From a virus (Duplodnaviria; Heunggongvirae; Uroviricota; Caudoviricetes), in IMG/VR virus record IMGVR_UViG_2737471861_000021: DNA of 27,857 nucleotides. One strand, written 5' to 3'. Shown here in pieces: positions 4,093 to 27,857 of the stretch. The notes beneath the pieces were generated by a model. The model did no database searches. It was not told where the DNA came from and worked only from the letters and a program-made list of their open reading frames with translations. Each line of letters starts with the position of its first letter. The stretch's first letter is position 1. A program made the translations under genes and the position numbers.

Positions 4093-4169
4093 TGGCGTGG
4101 CATGCAGGATTCGAACCTGCGACCAACCGCTTAGAAGGCGGTTGCTCTGTCCAACTGAGCTAATGCCAC
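4093..4169 (-). tRNA. tRNA-Arg (anticodon UCU)
   Basis: Minus-strand 77-nt sequence GTGGCATTAGCTCAGTTGGACAGAGCAACCGCCTTCTAAGCGGTTGGTCGCAGGTTCGAATCCTGCATGCCACGCCA folded by hand into a cloverleaf: 7-bp acceptor stem, GCTC/GAGC D-stem, anticodon loop CUUCUAA (UCU), GCAGG-TTCGAAT-CCTGC T-arm, encoded CCA. Closely resembles E. coli argU as I recall it. Confidence 0.85.
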
Positions 4170-6792: not shown

Positions 6793-7488
6793 ATGAATTT
6801 ATTTGAGCGTTTGCTGTATCGCCGTCTTTGCAATGAGCAACCAGTCGATGGTGGAGCAGCTCCGGCTGCGTCAGAACCGTCAGCGCCTGCAGGTGATAAC
6901 CCTGCTCCAGTTGGTGATCCATCACAACAGGAAGGTGATAAGCCACAACCTGTTGCTGATGGCGATAAACCTGCTGATGACAAAAAGCCTGAAAACGATA
7001 AGCAGGATGAAAAAAAGGACGGCGATAAACCAGAGGGTGCGCCTGAGAAGTACGAGTTTCAGGCTGCCGAAGGCGTAGAACTGGATACAGAAGCGTTGAA
7101 GGAATTCGAGCCGGTGGCGCGAGAACTTAACCTGACCAACGAGCAAGCGCAAAAGCTGGTTGATGCTTATCCGAAGATTCTGGCAGGTGTTCAGCAGCGC
7201 CAGGCAGAAGCCTGGCAGAAAACAACCGAGCAGTGGGCTGCGGATGTAAAAGCTGACAAAGAAATCGGTGGCGACAAGTTGATTTCTAACCTTAGCGCCG
7301 CACAGCGTGCGCTTGACCAGTTCGGGACACCTGAACTCAAAGAATATCTGAACACCACCGGGCTGGGTAATCACCCTGATCTGGTCAAAACGTTCGTGAA
7401 AATCGGAAAGGCGATGTCTGAAGATGGCATGGTCACCGGTGGTAATGAAGGCCAGCGTAGTGCGGCCGAAGTGCTCTATGGCAAATAA
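6793..7488 (+). CDS. Scaffolding protein (putative)
   Basis: ATG at 6793 with an AGGAG RBS (track ORF 6787..7488). Low-complexity Pro/Ala/Asp/Lys-rich N-terminal half, helical C-terminal half; sits between portal and major capsid. Confidence 0.55.
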   Translation: MNLFERLLYRRLCNEQPVDGGAAPAASEPSAPAGDNPAPVGDPSQQEGDKPQPVADGDKPADDKKPENDKQDEKKDGDKPEGAPEKYEFQAAEGVELDTEALKEFEPVARELNLTNEQAQKLVDAYPKILAGVQQRQAEAWQKTTEQWAADVKADKEIGGDKLISNLSAAQRALDQFGTPELKEYLNTTGLGNHPDLVKTFVKIGKAMSEDGMVTGGNEGQRSAAEVLYGK

Positions 7489-21228: not shown

Positions 21229-23418
21229 ATGACGGTCTCAACCGAAGTTGACCACAACGAATACACAGGCAATGGCGTTACGACTTCATTCCCTTATACC
21301 TTTAGGGTTTTCAATGAATCTGATCTGGTAGTGCAGGTGGTTGACCTTGACGAAAATATCGCTGTACTGGCTCTTGATACTGATTACACTGTCACTGGGG
21401 CTGGAGGATATAACGGCGGTAATGTAATTCTGTCGAAGGCGTTAGCTAACGGTTACCAGATTTCTATATCACGAGAGCTCCCGGTTACGCAGGAAACTGA
21501 TTTGCGTAATCAGGGTAAGTTCTTTGCAGAAGTGCATGAGGATGCTTTTGATAAGCTAACGATGCTGATCCAGCAGGTTCGAAGTTGGTTCAGTTTGGCT
21601 CTGCGTAAGCCATCATTTGTTGCTAATTATTATGATGCCTTGAACAATTACATCCGCAATTTACGTGATCCTTCAAGACCTCAAGATGCAGCCACTAAAA
21701 ATTATGTTGATACACAGCTCAGTACTAGCCTCAGGTGCACATTGCGCGTTCAGGAGCAGATTCCGATACTTCCTGACGCTGCCTCCCGTGAAAACAAGAT
21801 GCTTGCTTTCGATAACAATGGTAACCCCATTGTTGTACTTCCTCCATCTGGCTCTGCTTCTGATGTATTGATCGAATTAGCTAAACCAGCAGGCGCAGGG
21901 ATGATTGGTACCAAATCAGGAGATACTGTTCAAGATACGTTGGATGAACTCAATCATAAATCAGGTTATGATAATTCTGATATTTCTTTGTATGGATATA
22001 TATATGGTAGTGGAGAGGACGCTAAGCCTTATGTTCTTGCAGCCATAGGTAAAACAGGGGTTGCGCATATCAGCGGTGATACCACATTATCAAGATTTGA
22101 CTGGCCCCAAGGTGCAAGGATTACCGGAAAAGCAACGATCACATACACAAGGCTACCAAACGTTCCATGTGAACTTGATAGTGAAATACCTGTAAACCAT
22201 TCACTAATGAAAGCTGTATATGTTCATGAGGTATTTGATATCTGCGATATGTTACAAATAAAAACAGCAGGATTTAATACTTTAATTCATTATGGTCAGG
22301 CATGGCGTGATGGTGGAGACATGGAAAAAGCATGTAACGCAGCGGAAGCAATAGGATTGCGTTTGATTTTGGGCGGGCCAATATACGGACAGACAGATAC
22401 GCCATCTTCAGAACTGGACGATAGAGATTGTGTTATAGGATATTATCTATTTGATGAACCTCAAAACCATTCTATATCGGCTTCTGCCCAGGCTACTAGA
22501 ATAAACGCGTTCAAGGCTTTCACTAAAAAGTCGCTATGTATAGCTGATAATGGCATCTTTGCTTTTGATTCACCTACTATTCCGTCAGGGTACGATGGTG
22601 TTGGCTACGATTACATATTCATTGACGCTTACGCATACGCTAATCGAGATTTCGCCACGAATAAAAGAGCGGCAGTGCTATGTTGGGCGGAAATGAAATA
22701 CAAATCCCCAAATTCTAAGCTGATCCCTTGCTTGGGTATGTTTAGCGAACCTTCTGAGTTTTCAGATAAGTCAAAGCAAATATCTTTTGCAAGGAAATTC
22801 TTTGGGATGGGGCCCGGTGATTATGCCGCCTTTGCTTGGGAGAGCAATCTTATTATTGGCACATTCAAAGACATAACTAATGATTCTGACTTTTATAATG
22901 AAGTTTTAAGTTATAATTGCATAACAGAACAAAAACCATACAAAACAGATGTTTATGTGTTTTACACAGATAGAATGGGTGGGGCTATGCAGTTGTACAA
23001 TGACAAGTACAGTTCTGCCGATGTCACACCATTCCAGACTATCAATGCTGGGAGCGCACAAGGTGAGCGTAACACCACATTCAAAAAGGGTGGTATCGCG
23101 GCAAGAAACACCGGAGGCGTGTTTGCTACGAGGATGAAGAACCACGGGTACGTGGCTGTTGAGCTGTATTATTTTAACGGTGCAGATACCGCAAATACTA
23201 CAGCATCAATAACAACTTGCATTGACGATTTTTACACAAACACCCCGCAGCTTACGTTCACGCTCTCAACTACACAAAACGCCTGGATAAACTCTGTGGA
23301 AACAACACCTAATCTCGGTGTTGGTATAAAGATTATCCCAAGCCAATCTTACCAATATAGGTGGAAATTCATATATGGTGGCATAGTTGATTGCTCATGG
23401 AGAGGTGATTCATTTTAA
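21229..23418 (+). CDS. Tailspike / receptor-binding protein
   Basis: 729-aa ORF with a GGAGA RBS. N-terminus 'MTVSTEVDHNEYTGNGVTTSFPYTFRVF...' matches what I recall of the epsilon15-family tailspike head-binding domain. The distal two-thirds is AT-rich and divergent. Confidence 0.8.
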   Translation: MTVSTEVDHNEYTGNGVTTSFPYTFRVFNESDLVVQVVDLDENIAVLALDTDYTVTGAGGYNGGNVILSKALANGYQISISRELPVTQETDLRNQGKFFAEVHEDAFDKLTMLIQQVRSWFSLALRKPSFVANYYDALNNYIRNLRDPSRPQDAATKNYVDTQLSTSLRCTLRVQEQIPILPDAASRENKMLAFDNNGNPIVVLPPSGSASDVLIELAKPAGAGMIGTKSGDTVQDTLDELNHKSGYDNSDISLYGYIYGSGEDAKPYVLAAIGKTGVAHISGDTTLSRFDWPQGARITGKATITYTRLPNVPCELDSEIPVNHSLMKAVYVHEVFDICDMLQIKTAGFNTLIHYGQAWRDGGDMEKACNAAEAIGLRLILGGPIYGQTDTPSSELDDRDCVIGYYLFDEPQNHSISASAQATRINAFKAFTKKSLCIADNGIFAFDSPTIPSGYDGVGYDYIFIDAYAYANRDFATNKRAAVLCWAEMKYKSPNSKLIPCLGMFSEPSEFSDKSKQISFARKFFGMGPGDYAAFAWESNLIIGTFKDITNDSDFYNEVLSYNCITEQKPYKTDVYVFYTDRMGGAMQLYNDKYSSADVTPFQTINAGSAQGERNTTFKKGGIAARNTGGVFATRMKNHGYVAVELYYFNGADTANTTASITTCIDDFYTNTPQLTFTLSTTQNAWINSVETTPNLGVGIKIIPSQSYQYRWKFIYGGIVDCSWRGDSF

Positions 23419-23466: not shown

Positions 23467-24585
23467 TTATAATTTTATTCCTTTTCCGTACTTAATTAGT
23501 GGTCGTTCAATAAAAGAAAATGTAAGTGATGATAAAACACACAGTGCTACGAATAGAATTGTTATCATTGGGAGTGAGATATTTAGGTTGTTAATATCAT
23601 ATTTATCTTTAATAAAGGCAAATGAAGGATAGAAAACAACCCCTTGTAAAAGGTAAATGCTGTAAGAGCACTCCCCCAAACGAGTAAATCCCTTTATATT
23701 CAATATACCAAACAAGCTTGCGCCTTTAGCCACGCAAAGCATAAACACTGTGACTATTATCCACGGTCTAGTGCTGTTAAGTGATGGATTTAACAGTACG
23801 AATATAGTCACAGATGCTAACAGCATGAGGTCAGATGTTTTTTTTGATAATGAAATTCTGCATGATAACTCCTTAGATAGGATACCACAGGCGAAAGCAG
23901 AATAATACCAATATGATGCATCTGTAAATGATGGTAGAAAATACATACAAACAAACATAATACCAATTGAAGCTTCAAGTGGCTTGGAACGTAAAAAATA
24001 AATGATTGGTAAAGAGAAGTAGAATCCCCATTCCCACTTTATTGTCCATGTTACACCAGACAACACCAATACAGAATTATTGAATCCATTTATATTAGGT
24101 TTTATGTCAAATACACTTGCGTCAAACCATTTCAACAAATCATCCAAACTAATATTGTTGTGGTTTGTTGACATTAAAATAATATATGATACAGCAATGA
24201 ATGATGAAAGATATGTCATCGGTACGATTCTAAAAAATCTATCTTTATATAAGTTTATCCAGTCAATATTTTTTGATTTACGAATCTTTCCCCAGAAAAG
24301 AAAAGCTGTAATTGAAAAGAAAATCGCTACGCCAAATTTCCCTATTGAATAAATAAAATCAGAATGAGTAGTCCATTTATTTATTGTAAAATAATTAATA
24401 AAATAGTCTGAGTGATGGAACACAACCATGGATGCAAGAATATATCTTAGACCATCAAGATTCCGCTCCCTTGAGTAATCATGATCTTTCCCGTCTATGT
24501 AAGAAAAAACATTAGAGCTAAATAAAAGACCACATATAAAAATTGAACATCCAACCCACAAGTATATGATAACAGAGTCAGTCAT
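23467..24585 (-). CDS. Integral-membrane acyltransferase (acyltransferase family 3; O-antigen acetyltransferase-like)
   Basis: 372-aa polytopic membrane protein with 'LDGLRYILASMVVFHH' near the N-terminus and 'SYSIYLLQGVVFYP...FIERP' near the C-terminus, both typical of Acyltransferase_3 (Oac/OafA-like). Strongly AT-rich relative to the rest of the prophage. Confidence 0.75.
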   Translation of the reverse strand: MTDSVIIYLWVGCSIFICGLLFSSNVFSYIDGKDHDYSRERNLDGLRYILASMVVFHHSDYFINYFTINKWTTHSDFIYSIGKFGVAIFFSITAFLFWGKIRKSKNIDWINLYKDRFFRIVPMTYLSSFIAVSYIILMSTNHNNISLDDLLKWFDASVFDIKPNINGFNNSVLVLSGVTWTIKWEWGFYFSLPIIYFLRSKPLEASIGIMFVCMYFLPSFTDASYWYYSAFACGILSKELSCRISLSKKTSDLMLLASVTIFVLLNPSLNSTRPWIIVTVFMLCVAKGASLFGILNIKGFTRLGECSYSIYLLQGVVFYPSFAFIKDKYDINNLNISLPMITILFVALCVLSSLTFSFIERPLIKYGKGIKL

Positions 24586-24777
24586 TTTTAGTTTCCATAT
24601 TATATTCCAGTATTAGCTGCATGCAGAACCATTTTCCTATGGACGGCAGCATTGTATCACCCAGGGGGTAATTTCGGTAGGGGTATTCTTAGGTAATACA
24701 TATCCATATATGGTTTATTGTGTATGATGTACTCACCAACTAAGGGGGTTCTTTATGCACATTAAACGGTGGTCATA

Positions 24778-25182
24778 ATGGCGCAAATGTTAACCACGGA
24801 AACTATAAATCAGGGTCTTAGCATGAGCGCGCTGATGTCTGTGTTCGCTGGAGTACCGCCAGAGGTGGCTTTAGGAGCTTTGGCTGGGGCGGTAATTTTT
24901 GTTACCTCAGCGGTAGAGTATCACATCCGTCGCCGGGTGCTCCTGTCGATGCTCAGCTTTCTTTGCGGCCTTCTCTTTTACAAACCAGCAGCATCAATTC
25001 TTATCGGCATAGCCAGCCTGATCCCTACCATCACGCAGGACTCTTTTGAAAAAGGGATTGTTTTCTCTGCAGGCGCATTCGTGTCAGCAATTGTCGCTGT
25101 GCGTATTGGTATATGGCTCTATCACCGTTCCGATAATCCACGCGAGTTAATTCCGGGGAGAAAAGACGATGGTAACGTATGA
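24778..25182 (+). CDS. Holin-like membrane protein (class I-like, 3-4 TM)
   Basis: ATG at 24778 (track ORF 24769..25182). Several hydrophobic segments and a charged C-terminus; first gene of the lysis cassette. Confidence 0.5.
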   Translation: MAQMLTTETINQGLSMSALMSVFAGVPPEVALGALAGAVIFVTSAVEYHIRRRVLLSMLSFLCGLLFYKPAASILIGIASLIPTITQDSFEKGIVFSAGAFVSAIVAVRIGIWLYHRSDNPRELIPGRKDDGNV

Positions 25183-25477
25183 GTTTTTTTTGCTTATCAC
25201 CAATGCAGTTATTTGCACTGGCATAGCAATTCGCGTTGTCACATTCCGGCGTAACGGCTCTCAACACCGAAGGTGGGGAGGATGGCTTGCTTATTTCCTG
25301 ATTGTTGCTGCGGCCAGTATTCCTGTTCGTGTCGCCTATGCAATCTGGTTACGTACGCCAATGGCTGTGGATTTATCTGAGGTCATTATCAACGCTGTCA
25401 TGCTAACTGCGGTTATTAAAACGCGCGGTAACGTCGTTCAAATTTTCAAAGTATCGAGGTCTAAACATGGAGATTAA
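25169..25477 (+). CDS. Second small membrane protein of the lysis cassette (holin or antiholin-like)
   Basis: 102 aa with about three TM segments; overlaps the upstream gene and precedes the endolysin. Confidence 0.45.
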
Positions 25478-26096
25478 ACAATTCCAGCGAGCTGCTGGTA
25501 TCAGTGAGTCACTGGCCGCACGCTGGTTCTCGCATATAACTTCTGCGATGAAAGAGTTTGGTATCAGCAAACCAGAAGATCAGGCTATGTTTATTGCTCA
25601 GGTCGGGCATGAGTCTGGAGGCTTCACCCGGTTGCAGGAGAATTTCAACTACAGCGTCAGCGGACTGGCTAACTTTGTTCGGGCTGGGCGTCTCACTCAG
25701 GGACAGGCCAACGCATTGGGGCGACGCGCAGGCGAACCACCATTGCCACTTGAGCGCCAGCGCGCGATCGCAAATCTGGTATACAGCAAACGCATGGGGA
25801 ACAATGCCCCTGGTGATGGCTGGAATTACCGAGGGCGCGGACTTATCCAGATTACCGGTTTGAATAACTATCGTGATTGCGGAAACGGTCTGAAGGTTGA
25901 CCTGCTGGAGAGCCCTGAACTGCTGGCGCAGGACGAATATGCGGCTCGTAGCGCGGCGTGGTTCTTCGCCAGCAAAGGATGCATGAAGTATACCGGCGAT
26001 ATTGCACGTGTAACTCTGATTATCAATGGTGGCCGGAACGGCATCGACGACCGGCGAGCGCGGTACATCACTGCCAGTAAGGTGCTGGCGGTATGA
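25467..26096 (+). CDS. Endolysin, glycoside hydrolase family 19 (chitinase-like) type
   Basis: 209 aa. '[12 protein letters not shown]', '[12 protein letters not shown]' and '[12 protein letters not shown]' are GH19 endolysin signatures; from memory it is very close to the Salmonella phage SPN1S endolysin. Confidence 0.9.
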
Positions 26097-26590
26097 TCTG
26101 GGCATTCGTAAAAGCATACTGGAAACAGTTGCTTATCGTGGCAGTGCTTGCTGTTCTGGTCATATCAGGAGTGGTTGCCTGGAATATACACGGCAGTCGC
26201 CAGTACGATGCCGGGTATGCTCAGGCGAAGGAAGATCAGAAACAGGCTGATGATAAGTTAAGGTCACAGCGTGAGCAGGAGAAAACACAAATTGAACGTG
26301 AAGCACAATCCCGTATCGATGCGGCGCGTGCTGATGCTGAGTATGCTAATTCCGCTGCTGACAGCATGCGCGCCGAGCTTGACAAAACCAGGCGGCTCGC
26401 CGAACACTATACCGGATCTTTCCCCCCTGGCACGCCAGCCAGCAAGGTCATCGGTGTGCTCGCCGACATGCTTGAAGAAAGCAACCGAGTTTACAACGCA
26501 ACAGCAGCTGAGGCTGAAAAGTATCGTATCGCAGGGGAATTCTGCGAGCAGCAATACGATTCACTGAAGAAGCAAAAATCGTGGCACTGA
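26093..26590 (+). CDS. Rz: i-spanin (Rz-like)
   Basis: 165 aa with an N-terminal TM helix ([18 protein letters not shown]) and a charged coiled-coil-like periplasmic domain; directly follows the endolysin with an ATGA overlap. Confidence 0.7.
26319..26567 (+). CDS. Rz1: o-spanin lipoprotein (Rz1-like), embedded in the +1 frame of Rz
   Basis: Internal ATG of track ORF 26271..26567. Signal peptide [17 protein letters not shown] with an LTAC lipobox, followed by a Pro-rich mature region. Lies entirely within Rz in a different frame. Confidence 0.6.
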   Translation: MRRVLMLSMLIPLLTACAPSLTKPGGSPNTIPDLSPLARQPARSSVCSPTCLKKATEFTTQQQLRLKSIVSQGNSASSNTIH

Positions 26591-26716
26591 TTTCCGGTGA
26601 CGGTATATAAAACGGTACGGGAAAAGTTGAGGTTTGTAAAAGTGTTATCACTCAATTGGTTATGGTTGTCGTAAATAATTGAGTGGGAATGATTTTAATC
26701 CCTGCACTATGAATGA

Positions 26717-26749
26717 ACAAAACCCTCTGTTACTACAGAGGGTTTTTTA
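26717..26749. terminator. Strong bidirectional rho-independent terminator
   Basis: AAAA-CCCTCTGT-tact-ACAGAGGG-TTTTTT between the lysis operon (+) and the convergent envelope genes (-). A second hairpin, CTTCAAG-N9-CTTGAAG, lies at 26751-26773. Confidence 0.65.
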
Positions 26750-26786
26750 TCTTCAAGAATCATAGGCTTGAAGTTACTAACATCGA

Positions 26787-27326
26787 TTAATTAAACCAGC
26801 TGTCCGATTTGTTCTCTTCTGCTTTGCCCACGCTTTTCATCAGATCGCGACCGCCTTCAGTCATATTTCTGTTGGCGTCAGCTTCAGATTGCACCACATC
26901 GGTTTGCGCAGCTTTGTGCTTCAGTTCCTGATCGATAAATTCGTTTTCTCGCTTAACGCGGGCTTCTTCTTTTGCCAGCGCCAGTTTTTGTTTCTGAATC
27001 TCTAAGCTGCGTAGCTCATCTTCATAACTTTGATCGCGTTTTTTGTCCGCAGAGGCTTCGGCGTCCAGTTTATCCTGACGAGCTTTCTTATTTGCCGCTG
27101 CCGTTGCCGCTCTTTTGTTAGCGGCGGCCTGGGCATTTGCGCGACGTTGCTTCTCTTGCTGGATTTCCCTGTTGCGCTCCGCGACCCATTCGTCATGCTG
27201 CCTTTGCTCTTCATTTTTACCTTGCTGTTCAGCTTCTGCTACAGCAGAGAGTTGATCCTGCAATGATGAGGCGATAGCCGGATAGCTTAAGGAGGCCAAG
27301 ATGGCGCAAAGAAAAACTTTCTTCAT
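26787..27326 (-). CDS. Secreted/periplasmic coiled-coil protein, function unknown
   Basis: 179 aa with a signal peptide (MKKVFLCAILASLSYPAIASS) and a highly charged Ala/Lys/Glu/Gln-rich helical remainder; RBS present. Confidence 0.6.
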   Translation of the reverse strand: MKKVFLCAILASLSYPAIASSLQDQLSAVAEAEQQGKNEEQRQHDEWVAERNREIQQEKQRRANAQAAANKRAATAAANKKARQDKLDAEASADKKRDQSYEDELRSLEIQKQKLALAKEEARVKRENEFIDQELKHKAAQTDVVQSEADANRNMTEGGRDLMKSVGKAEENKSDSWFN

Positions 27327-27341
27327 GACTCCTCCTGATTA

Positions 27342-27857
27342 TTAGCTCTTTTCAGGACATTTAGTATTTGGCTGAATACGCGTTTCGTTATACGTTGTGG
27401 TAATAACAACGGCTAAACCTGTCGTAAACTGGCACTCTTTACCCACCTGGGTAGAGGTATACACTTTGGTGCCTTCCTTATATGTTAAAGAAACACCTTC
27501 CACTAAGGTTTTATCATTCACCATAGAACCCACTGCCGCGCCTACAGCTCCGCCGCCAACTGCCCCTGCCGTCGTTCCGGAATTGCTGCCAGAACCGACG
27601 TTGTGGCCGATAACACCGCCAGCGACTGCGCCAATAAGCGCGCCGAAGGCTTGTGCGTTCCGTTTATTTTGGGAGTTGTCTACGGCAACTTTTGCGGGAA
27701 GAATGGAAATAATATTAACGGTTTTAGTTTCTTGTTTGGTATTCAGTTGATCGGTTTGATAAACATCGGCGGCATGATCGTCAGCATTTGACTGGCATCC
27801 TGCCAGAGTGAATGACGCTAACATTGCCACAGGCAGAAGACATTTTTTAAATTTCAT
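27342..27857 (-). CDS. Outer-membrane lipoprotein with a glycine-zipper domain (YcfJ/SlyB/17-kDa-antigen-like)
   Basis: 171 aa. Signal peptide plus lipobox (LAGC) and a Gly-zipper segment 'GALIGAVAGGVIGHNVGSG...GGGAVGAAVGS' resembling YcfJ/SlyB-type lipoproteins (recollection). Its start codon is the last triplet of the window. Confidence 0.65.
   Translation of the reverse strand: MKFKKCLLPVAMLASFTLAGCQSNADDHAADVYQTDQLNTKQETKTVNIISILPAKVAVDNSQNKRNAQAFGALIGAVAGGVIGHNVGSGSNSGTTAGAVGGGAVGAAVGSMVNDKTLVEGVSLTYKEGTKVYTSTQVGKECQFTTGLAVVITTTYNETRIQPNTKCPEKS

Follow-up and report, generated by a model that had tools for sequence, protein, structure and literature searches.

Phages of the phiV10/epsilon15 type (genus Uetakevirus, which includes phiV10 and vB_EcoP_ZX5, hereafter ZX5) have an attachment site at the 3' end of the host gene guaA. 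A 17-bp string, ATTGAGTGGGAATGATT, has already been published as both the phage attachment site (attP) and the bacterial attachment site (attB) of phiV10, epsilon15 and ZX5 (PMC9782041). In the free genomes of phiV10 and epsilon15, the lysis genes Rz/Rz1 are followed by attP, a terminator and the integrase gene (int), and no cargo gene lies between them. A different arrangement is known from phage lambda, in which bor, a lysogen-expressed lipoprotein gene, is placed after Rz. The analysis described here concerns the last part of a 27,857-nucleotide (nt) stretch of viral DNA, IMG/VR record IMGVR_UViG_2737471861_000021 (Caudoviricetes), called the window below, in which two minus-strand genes, yfgI and yfgH, stand after Rz/Rz1. 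With near certainty, this interval holds the right junction (attR) of a Uetakevirus prophage of the phiV10/epsilon15 type together with the adjoining host chromosome, and the two genes are ordinary Escherichia coli chromosomal genes rather than prophage cargo. The type of junction, the attachment core and both genes are already known; since the ZX5 paper gives exactly the same 17-bp string as attP and attB, the junction represents an already described kind of site.

The core ATTGAGTGGGAATGATT occurs once in the window, at 26678-26694. It reads ATT GAG TGG GAA TGA followed by TT, which corresponds to the last four codons of guaA (I-E-W-E), the guaA stop codon (TGA at 26690-26692) and two further nucleotides. 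In a four-way alignment, the 17-bp core is identical in the attR of the window, the attB of E. coli K-12, the attP of phiV10 and the left junction (attL) of a related lysogen, while the flanking sequences exchange cleanly around it. Free phage genomes (phiV10 and ZX5) follow the window as far as 26694, beyond which their own sequence continues with attP and int, and the phage arm of attR, to the left of the core, has no match to K-12 attB. The same boundary is obtained from the host side by a comparison with prophage-free genomes; the first-pass annotation of this DNA had proposed a comparison with an isogenic prophage-free strain for placing the attachment sites. When the segment 24600-27857 was used as a query against complete E. 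coli genomes, the lysis cassette was also present, in one piece, in 531 of them. In nearly all other genomes, K-12 included, the match starts only at query base 2079, that is, at window position 26678, and guaA underlies the start of the match in the empty-site genomes.

The DNA to the right of the core is found throughout the species. With 26600-27857 as a Megablast query, 5422 of 5426 complete E. coli genomes gave a match to this segment, without exception in the chromosome, and in the best-matching genomes listed RefSeq labels it as yfgI (DUF5384) and yfgH (outer-membrane lipoprotein). YfgI of the window is the same as K-12 YfgI (b2506) at 179/179 residues, and in YfgH a single residue is changed relative to K-12, from A to V. 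In 4463 of the 5426 genomes, a K-12 probe of 341 nt that covers attB, where guaA directly abuts yfgI, finds an unbroken match. In the remaining ones the match is broken at the core or only partial, which leaves about 18% of the genomes (963/5426) with something inserted at the guaA-yfgI junction. The gene order in K-12 is guaB-guaA-yfgI-yfgH-yfgG-pdeF, and in the related lysogen 18AR0366 it is guaB-guaA-int...Rz-yfgI-yfgH-yfgG-pdeF, with guaA-attL-int at the left end of the prophage. In K-12, yfgH-yfgI (b2505-b2506) lie beside guaA with the same intergenic terminator and the same spacing as in the window. Only the neighbour has changed, as guaA is displaced by roughly 40 kb by the prophage located between guaA and yfgI.

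The first-pass annotation, made from the sequence alone, had noticed two minus-strand genes after Rz/Rz1, one for a secreted coiled-coil protein and one for a glycine-zipper outer-membrane lipoprotein. Both genes are indeed present according to open reading frames (ORFs) and Pfam, and AlphaFold2 predicts a helical product for the first. It had offered two explanations for them, of which the host flank, with a boundary near 26600-26780, proved right, as the 17-bp core lies within that interval. According to the other, the genes would form a bor-like moron, carried in the phage genome after Rz/Rz1, expressed in the lysogen and acting in lysogenic conversion. The position is analogous to that of lambda bor, the likeness being a minus-strand lipoprotein gene near the end of the lysis cassette, and yfgH and yfgI are oriented opposite to the late operon. 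A RefSeq phage record, TL-2011b, lists both genes, and phage-plasmids of the P7 type carry paralogs. Nevertheless, this explanation is refuted, and it is hardly conceivable that the two genes are phage-borne at this locus. The annotation itself had stated that their presence at the same locus in prophage-free strains would mark them as host genes, and this is what is observed in the 4463 genomes with an empty attachment site, and in K-12. The core separates Rz from yfgI and yfgH, so that yfgH lies outside the prophage boundary. The lambda analogy also fails for this phage family, because phiV10 and epsilon15, and likewise the free Tyrion and PAT1 genomes, proceed from Rz to attP to int without genes of the yfgI/yfgH type. 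Moreover, in a Pfam scan (E <= 0.001) YfgI matched only DUF5384 and YfgH only glycine-zipper families and TraT, with no bor-related family for either protein.

Exact yfgI and yfgH matches in the phage collection were considered as possible phage carriage and rejected; they come from TL-2011b, a record that also holds yfgG and a pdeF-like stretch. The presence of both genes in this record (NC_019445.1, 41360-44784) is one of four caveats to the reading of the interval as attR plus host flank. Because yfgG and a pdeF-like stretch are also present beyond attR, the deposited record includes host flank, and its prophage boundaries overshoot into the chromosome. The second point is that attL and the integrase lie outside the window, and the left end is seen only in the related lysogen, which is 95.8% identical over the junction region. 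Third, the GC content at third codon positions (GC3) is 0.41 in yfgH and 0.48 in yfgI, against 0.60 in guaA. Low GC3 is, however, also typical of weakly expressed genes. Finally, diverged paralogs occur on P1/P7-type phage-plasmids, and the gene family is therefore not exclusively chromosomal. These four caveats stand, and no evidence contradicting the attR/host-flank reading was found.

The proposed course of events is the following. A P4-type tyrosine integrase of the phage would have carried out recombination between ATTGAGTGGGAATGATT in attP and the same 17 bp in the 3' end of guaA. As a result, the core is now abutted by the lysis cassette, which comprises two holin-like genes, a GH19 endolysin gene and Rz/Rz1, and by about 87 bp of attP arm. 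Everything rightward from the core is chromosome: 15 nt of the guaA tail come first, then the terminator between guaA and yfgI, and then yfgI and yfgH in convergent orientation. At the other end of the prophage guaA would remain intact, since the phage DNA provides an identical set of final codons along with a terminator hairpin of its own. That hairpin, AACCCTCTGTTTTTACAGAGGGTTTTT, is carried in the phage attP about 45 bp past the core and is a near copy of the host hairpin AACCCTCTGTTACTACAGAGGGTTTTTT, which is why guaA would keep both its last codons and an equivalent terminator after integration. This resemblance suggests that the attP region was derived from a guaA 3' region. All mapped features are collected in Table 1.

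Table 1. Features at the prophage-host junction and in the neighbouring lysis cassette (window positions unless another record is named; a dot in the strand column means that no strand is assigned; L003 and L004 are our labels for the extracted loci).
Feature	Position	Strand	Evidence or remark
Two consecutive overlapping holin-family genes (Phage_holin_8, Phage_holin_3_7)	24769-25182, 25169-25477	+	
Rz-like i-spanin (DUF2514), last protein-coding gene of the prophage	26093-26590	+	Pfam PF10721, 84.5 bits
Embedded Rz1-like o-spanin, +1 frame, ATG 26319, lipobox LLTAC	26319-26567	+	ORF listing, direct sequence reading
Phage-derived arm of attR (attP arm beside Rz)	26591-26677	.	Matches attP arm of phiV10, epsilon15, Tyrion and PAT1
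Inverted repeat CACTCAATT(N19)AATTGAGTG	26649-26657 / 26677-26685	.	Left arm in phage arm, right arm overlaps core
att core ATTGAGTGGGAATGATT, 17 bp	26678-26694	+	Prophage-host boundary; attR/attB/attP/attL alignment
Host guaA/yfgI intergenic Rho-independent terminator hairpin	26719-26746	.	Terminator scan; identical in K-12 empty site
Short inverted repeat CTTCAAG(N9)CTTGAAG	26751-26757 / 26767-26773	.	Host intergenic DNA, between terminator and yfgI stop
yfgI, host gene, DUF5384 exported all-helical protein, 179 aa	26787-27326	-	Pfam PF17358; K-12 identity
yfgH, host gene, SlyB-like glycine-zipper outer-membrane lipoprotein, 171 aa	27342-27857	-	PF05433; K-12 near-identity
Phage-borne hairpin	phiV10 attP 2248-2280 (L003); attL ~6950-6985 (L004)		Compared with window 26719-26746

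The terminator past Rz/Rz1 had been described as strong and bidirectional. The hairpin contains 12 pairs and folds at -20.1 kcal/mol on the plus strand and -21.1 kcal/mol on the minus strand, with z = -6.3 and -5.2, respectively, and 0/200 shuffled sequences fold as well; the U-tract consists of 6 U on the plus strand and only of UUUUGUU on the minus strand. It is not part of the lysis cassette and lies about 130 nt past the Rz stop codon, beyond the att core, in host DNA. This element is common to the two convergent host genes guaA and yfgI, and it still serves yfgI after integration. In the lysogen, it may in addition keep late transcripts of the phage that run out of Rz from entering yfgI in the antisense direction.

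Both inverted repeats that had been reported at the boundary exist, and the first of them indeed spans the phage arm and the core, while the second is host intergenic sequence. The first repeat is also present in phiV10 attP and folds as RNA at -21.1 kcal/mol (z = -4.6). Conservation of its left arm is incomplete in epsilon15 and PAT1, whereas its right arm, AATTGAGTG, is invariant because it is guaA sequence. As a conserved recombinase site this repeat was rejected, with no covariation support, a drifting left arm and a right arm fixed by guaA. It could serve as a site for integrase or integration host factor (IHF); which bases these two proteins contact is something we infer. The second repeat has arms of 7 bases, which is at chance level, and it is also found in K-12, with two base differences in the spacer between the arms. 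A conserved element of the phage arm is the block CCGGTGACGGTATATAAAACGGTA at about 26604-26627. It was recognized in a seven-way alignment of the window attR, four attP sequences (phiV10, epsilon15, Tyrion and PAT1), an attR-like Klebsiella prophage record and K-12 attB, where it is conserved in six of the seven sequences and absent only from K-12 attB. Part of this block, GTGACGGTAT, is annotated in the epsilon15 record as a predicted integrase-binding site. A sigma-70 promoter scan of 26400-27857 gave 2 sites against 1.6 expected from shuffled sequence, thus no excess, and Rfam at the gathering threshold detected nothing in 26600-27857, the only hit being the phage tRNA-Arg described below.

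YfgI belongs to DUF5384 (Pfam PF17358, 208.2 bits versus a cutoff of 25) and carries an N-terminal signal-like segment. Its AlphaFold2 model, computed from a single sequence, is one continuous helix over residues 16-178 with a mean predicted local distance difference test (pLDDT) score of 88, and the protein may form a coiled coil. The C-terminal half (about residues 93-179; DKKRDQSYEDELR...RENEFIDQELK...TDVIQSEADANRN) is strongly conserved across distant genera, and the N-terminal half is a variable low-complexity helix rich in Ala, Glu, Lys and Gln. A sequence search of the PDB gave no relative of this protein. When a yfgI mutant was exposed to nalidixic acid, its survival was 7% of that of the wild type, and with two other antibiotics it was close to normal (PMC3536626).

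YfgH is a lipoprotein with the lipobox LAGC at residues 18-21 and Gln at position +2. The window ends on an in-frame ATG of yfgH, in agreement with the earlier statement that it stops at the lipoprotein start codon, though the RefSeq start is a GTG one codon upstream, just outside the window. The protein matches the glycine-zipper 2TM family (PF05433, 34 bits versus a cutoff of 24.2) and aligns with SlyB (PDB 7ojf) over residues 8-163 at E = 1.4e-10. The two proteins thus have the lipobox and the glycine-zipper 2TM domain in common, and the alignment covers nearly the full length. Membership in the TraT family (PF05818) was considered and rejected, as the score of 27.3 bits lies below the cutoff of 31 and the PDB entry 9e2v gave only E = 0.006; this is a distant resemblance. 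None of seven proteins scored above the NCBIfam cutoffs. According to a 2025 preprint, deletion of yfgH sensitises cells to detergent and ethylenediaminetetraacetic acid (EDTA), and YfgH is needed when outer-membrane biogenesis is depleted. The same preprint predicts SlyB-like rings of YfgH and reports a role in stabilising the outer membrane under envelope stress. The genetics of the two lipoproteins differ, as a yfgH deletion is suppressed by clsA mutations and slyB by Mla suppressors (2025 preprint). In every locus recovered with the YfgI query, yfgH lies directly upstream of a DUF5384 gene. The 2025 preprint does not mention yfgI (yfgH 198 occurrences, yfgI 0).

Because yfgH and yfgI are only 15 nt apart on the same strand, they probably form one operon. 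A paper on the SdiA regulon also treats yfgHI as one operon, orthologous to srgIL of Salmonella Typhi, and reports that the yfgHI orthologs are present in S. Typhi and absent from S. Typhimurium (PMC11619404). The association of the two genes extends well beyond this group. A YfgI search with one genome per species recovered 28 loci. Wherever the locus is full-length, the YfgI homolog is directly preceded by a YfgH homolog on the same strand, and the gap between the two is short. The synteny guaA-yfgI-yfgH-yfgG is found in E. coli, E. ruysiae, E. whittamii, E. albertii and one unclassified Enterobacteriaceae genome. Two Citrobacter loci keep yfgI-yfgH-yfgG; in one of them guaA follows past an integrase remnant, and in the other the retrieved flank does not include it. 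The pair has unrelated neighbourhoods in Xenorhabdus, Pantoea, Pseudomonas duriflava and Haemophilus haemolyticus, some of them with transposase- or recombinase-like ORFs close by.

Several matches from this search were set aside. Low-identity loci labelled "E. coli/Shigella" (L021, L024 and L032) were considered as paralogs, but they are fragmented, frameshift-like matches over guaA, yfgI and yfgH and were treated as poor assemblies. Fragments 98-100% identical to E. coli YfgI also turned up in two Gram-positive assemblies, on very short contigs of low coverage (274 bp in Fredinandcohnia humi, 336 bp in Brevibacterium sp.), and these are almost certainly contamination.

Phage-plasmids carry a relative of the pair. 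In phage P7 (NC_050152.1, 3476-4540), the genes upf50.5 and upf50.0 are arranged in the same way, with the gene for a YfgH-like lipoprotein first and that for a DUF5384 protein second; their amino acid identities are 68% and 47.5%, respectively. The immI region (c4-icd-ant, with the C1 operator Op(c4)) lies on one side of them and the late promoter LPsit on the other, and a promoter scan upstream of the P7 pair remained at chance level. The P1-type phage-plasmids SJ46 and RCS47 also carry a diverged pair. About 186 plasmids in E. coli and Salmonella have a copy of less than 60% identity; those listed are about 83-146 kb in size and about 47.5-49% identical, and most of the matching plasmids are predicted to be non-mobilizable. 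The identity of the plasmid YfgI copy, about 47.5%, equals that of the P7 protein, which suggests that these plasmids may be phage-plasmids of the P1/P7 type. The P7 pair is element-borne, but it is a diverged paralog and not the copy of the window. The idea of an envelope gene pair carried by a mobile element is therefore true of a paralog elsewhere, on P1/P7-type phage-plasmids, and not of the locus in the window.

These distributions bear on another possibility, that yfgH and yfgI are host genes now but represent an old mobile two-gene cassette in the Escherichia/Citrobacter lineage, which may have used the integration hot spot at guaA as its entry point before becoming fixed. The occurrence of the adjacent pair in unrelated neighbourhoods of other genera is consistent with such a history, as are the diverged copies on about 186 plasmids, the reported difference between S. 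Typhi, which has orthologs, and S. Typhimurium, which lacks them (PMC11619404), and the insertions at the guaA-yfgI junction in about 18% of E. coli genomes. The GC3 values below that of guaA would also fit, with the reservation concerning weakly expressed genes made above. On the other hand, the empty site shows no att remnant or integrase flanking the pair, the guaA-yfgI-yfgH-yfgG synteny holds across Escherichia species, and Citrobacter keeps yfgI-yfgH-yfgG. An origin of this kind is rather unlikely. In the window itself, the two genes are read as host flank beside attR.

Use of the guaA-yfgI site by other elements is a separate matter. An unbroken junction is lacking in 963 of 5426 genomes, and a lysis cassette like that of the window stands beside yfgI in only 531; for this reason, other elements seem to use the same site. 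In Citrobacter sp. ANG330, a 50-residue remnant of a phiV10-type integrase lies between yfgI and guaA (L015, 6949-7098).

The phage part of the window is closely related to known phages. Positions 1-25000 show about 97% nucleotide identity to phiV10, vB_EcoP_ZX5, PAS61 and the O157 typing phages 9 and 10. The window shares with the guaA attR of Uetakevirus (phiV10, epsilon15 and vB_EcoP_ZX5) the 17-bp core, the Rz-side attP arm with CCGGTGACGGTATATAAAACGGTA, the order of the lysis cassette and the structural genes, whose nucleotide identity is about 97%. The holin pair precedes a GH19-type endolysin, as in phiV10 and epsilon15, and Rz is colinear with phiV10 gp30 and epsilon15 gp26, although it has 165 aa in the window and 160 aa in phiV10. 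An embedded Rz1 is annotated at the equivalent position in both of these phages. In the tailspike (21229-23418, plus strand), the first 227 aa share 80% identity with phiV10 gp25, and the rest of the protein is unrelated to it. No meaningful similarity links the neighbouring Acyl_transf_3 protein (23467-24585, minus strand, 372 aa) to the O-acetyltransferase Oac of phiV10. By sequence comparison with phiV10, the predicted receptor-binding part of the tailspike and the adjacent putative acyltransferase are both replaced. A phage-borne tRNA-Arg gene (anticodon TCT) is located at 4093-4169 on the minus strand, and it is also annotated in related phages and in the lysogen.

The main value of these results lies in correct annotation. 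The right prophage boundary is set to the base, the terminator and the second inverted repeat are assigned to the host, and two core host genes are struck from the list of candidate lysogenic-conversion factors. Database records require some caution in this respect. RefSeq phage records NC_019445.1 (F365_gp55), NC_050152.1 (upf50.5), NC_031129.1 and NC_042128.1 name the YfgH-like glycine-zipper lipoprotein "DNA methyltransferase", which appears to be a propagated misannotation. Both this label and the TL-2011b record with its host flank are potential traps when phage cargo is searched for automatically.

The only point of research value is the joint occurrence of yfgH and yfgI in different genera and on phage-plasmids. 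This pairing suggests a functional partnership, which the 2025 YfgH preprint does not address. It is possible, though doubtful at present, that yfgH-yfgI constitute one horizontally mobile two-gene envelope module, in which YfgI would be the obligate periplasmic partner of a YfgH outer-membrane ring and the P1/P7 copy would be the true element-borne, envelope-modifying version.

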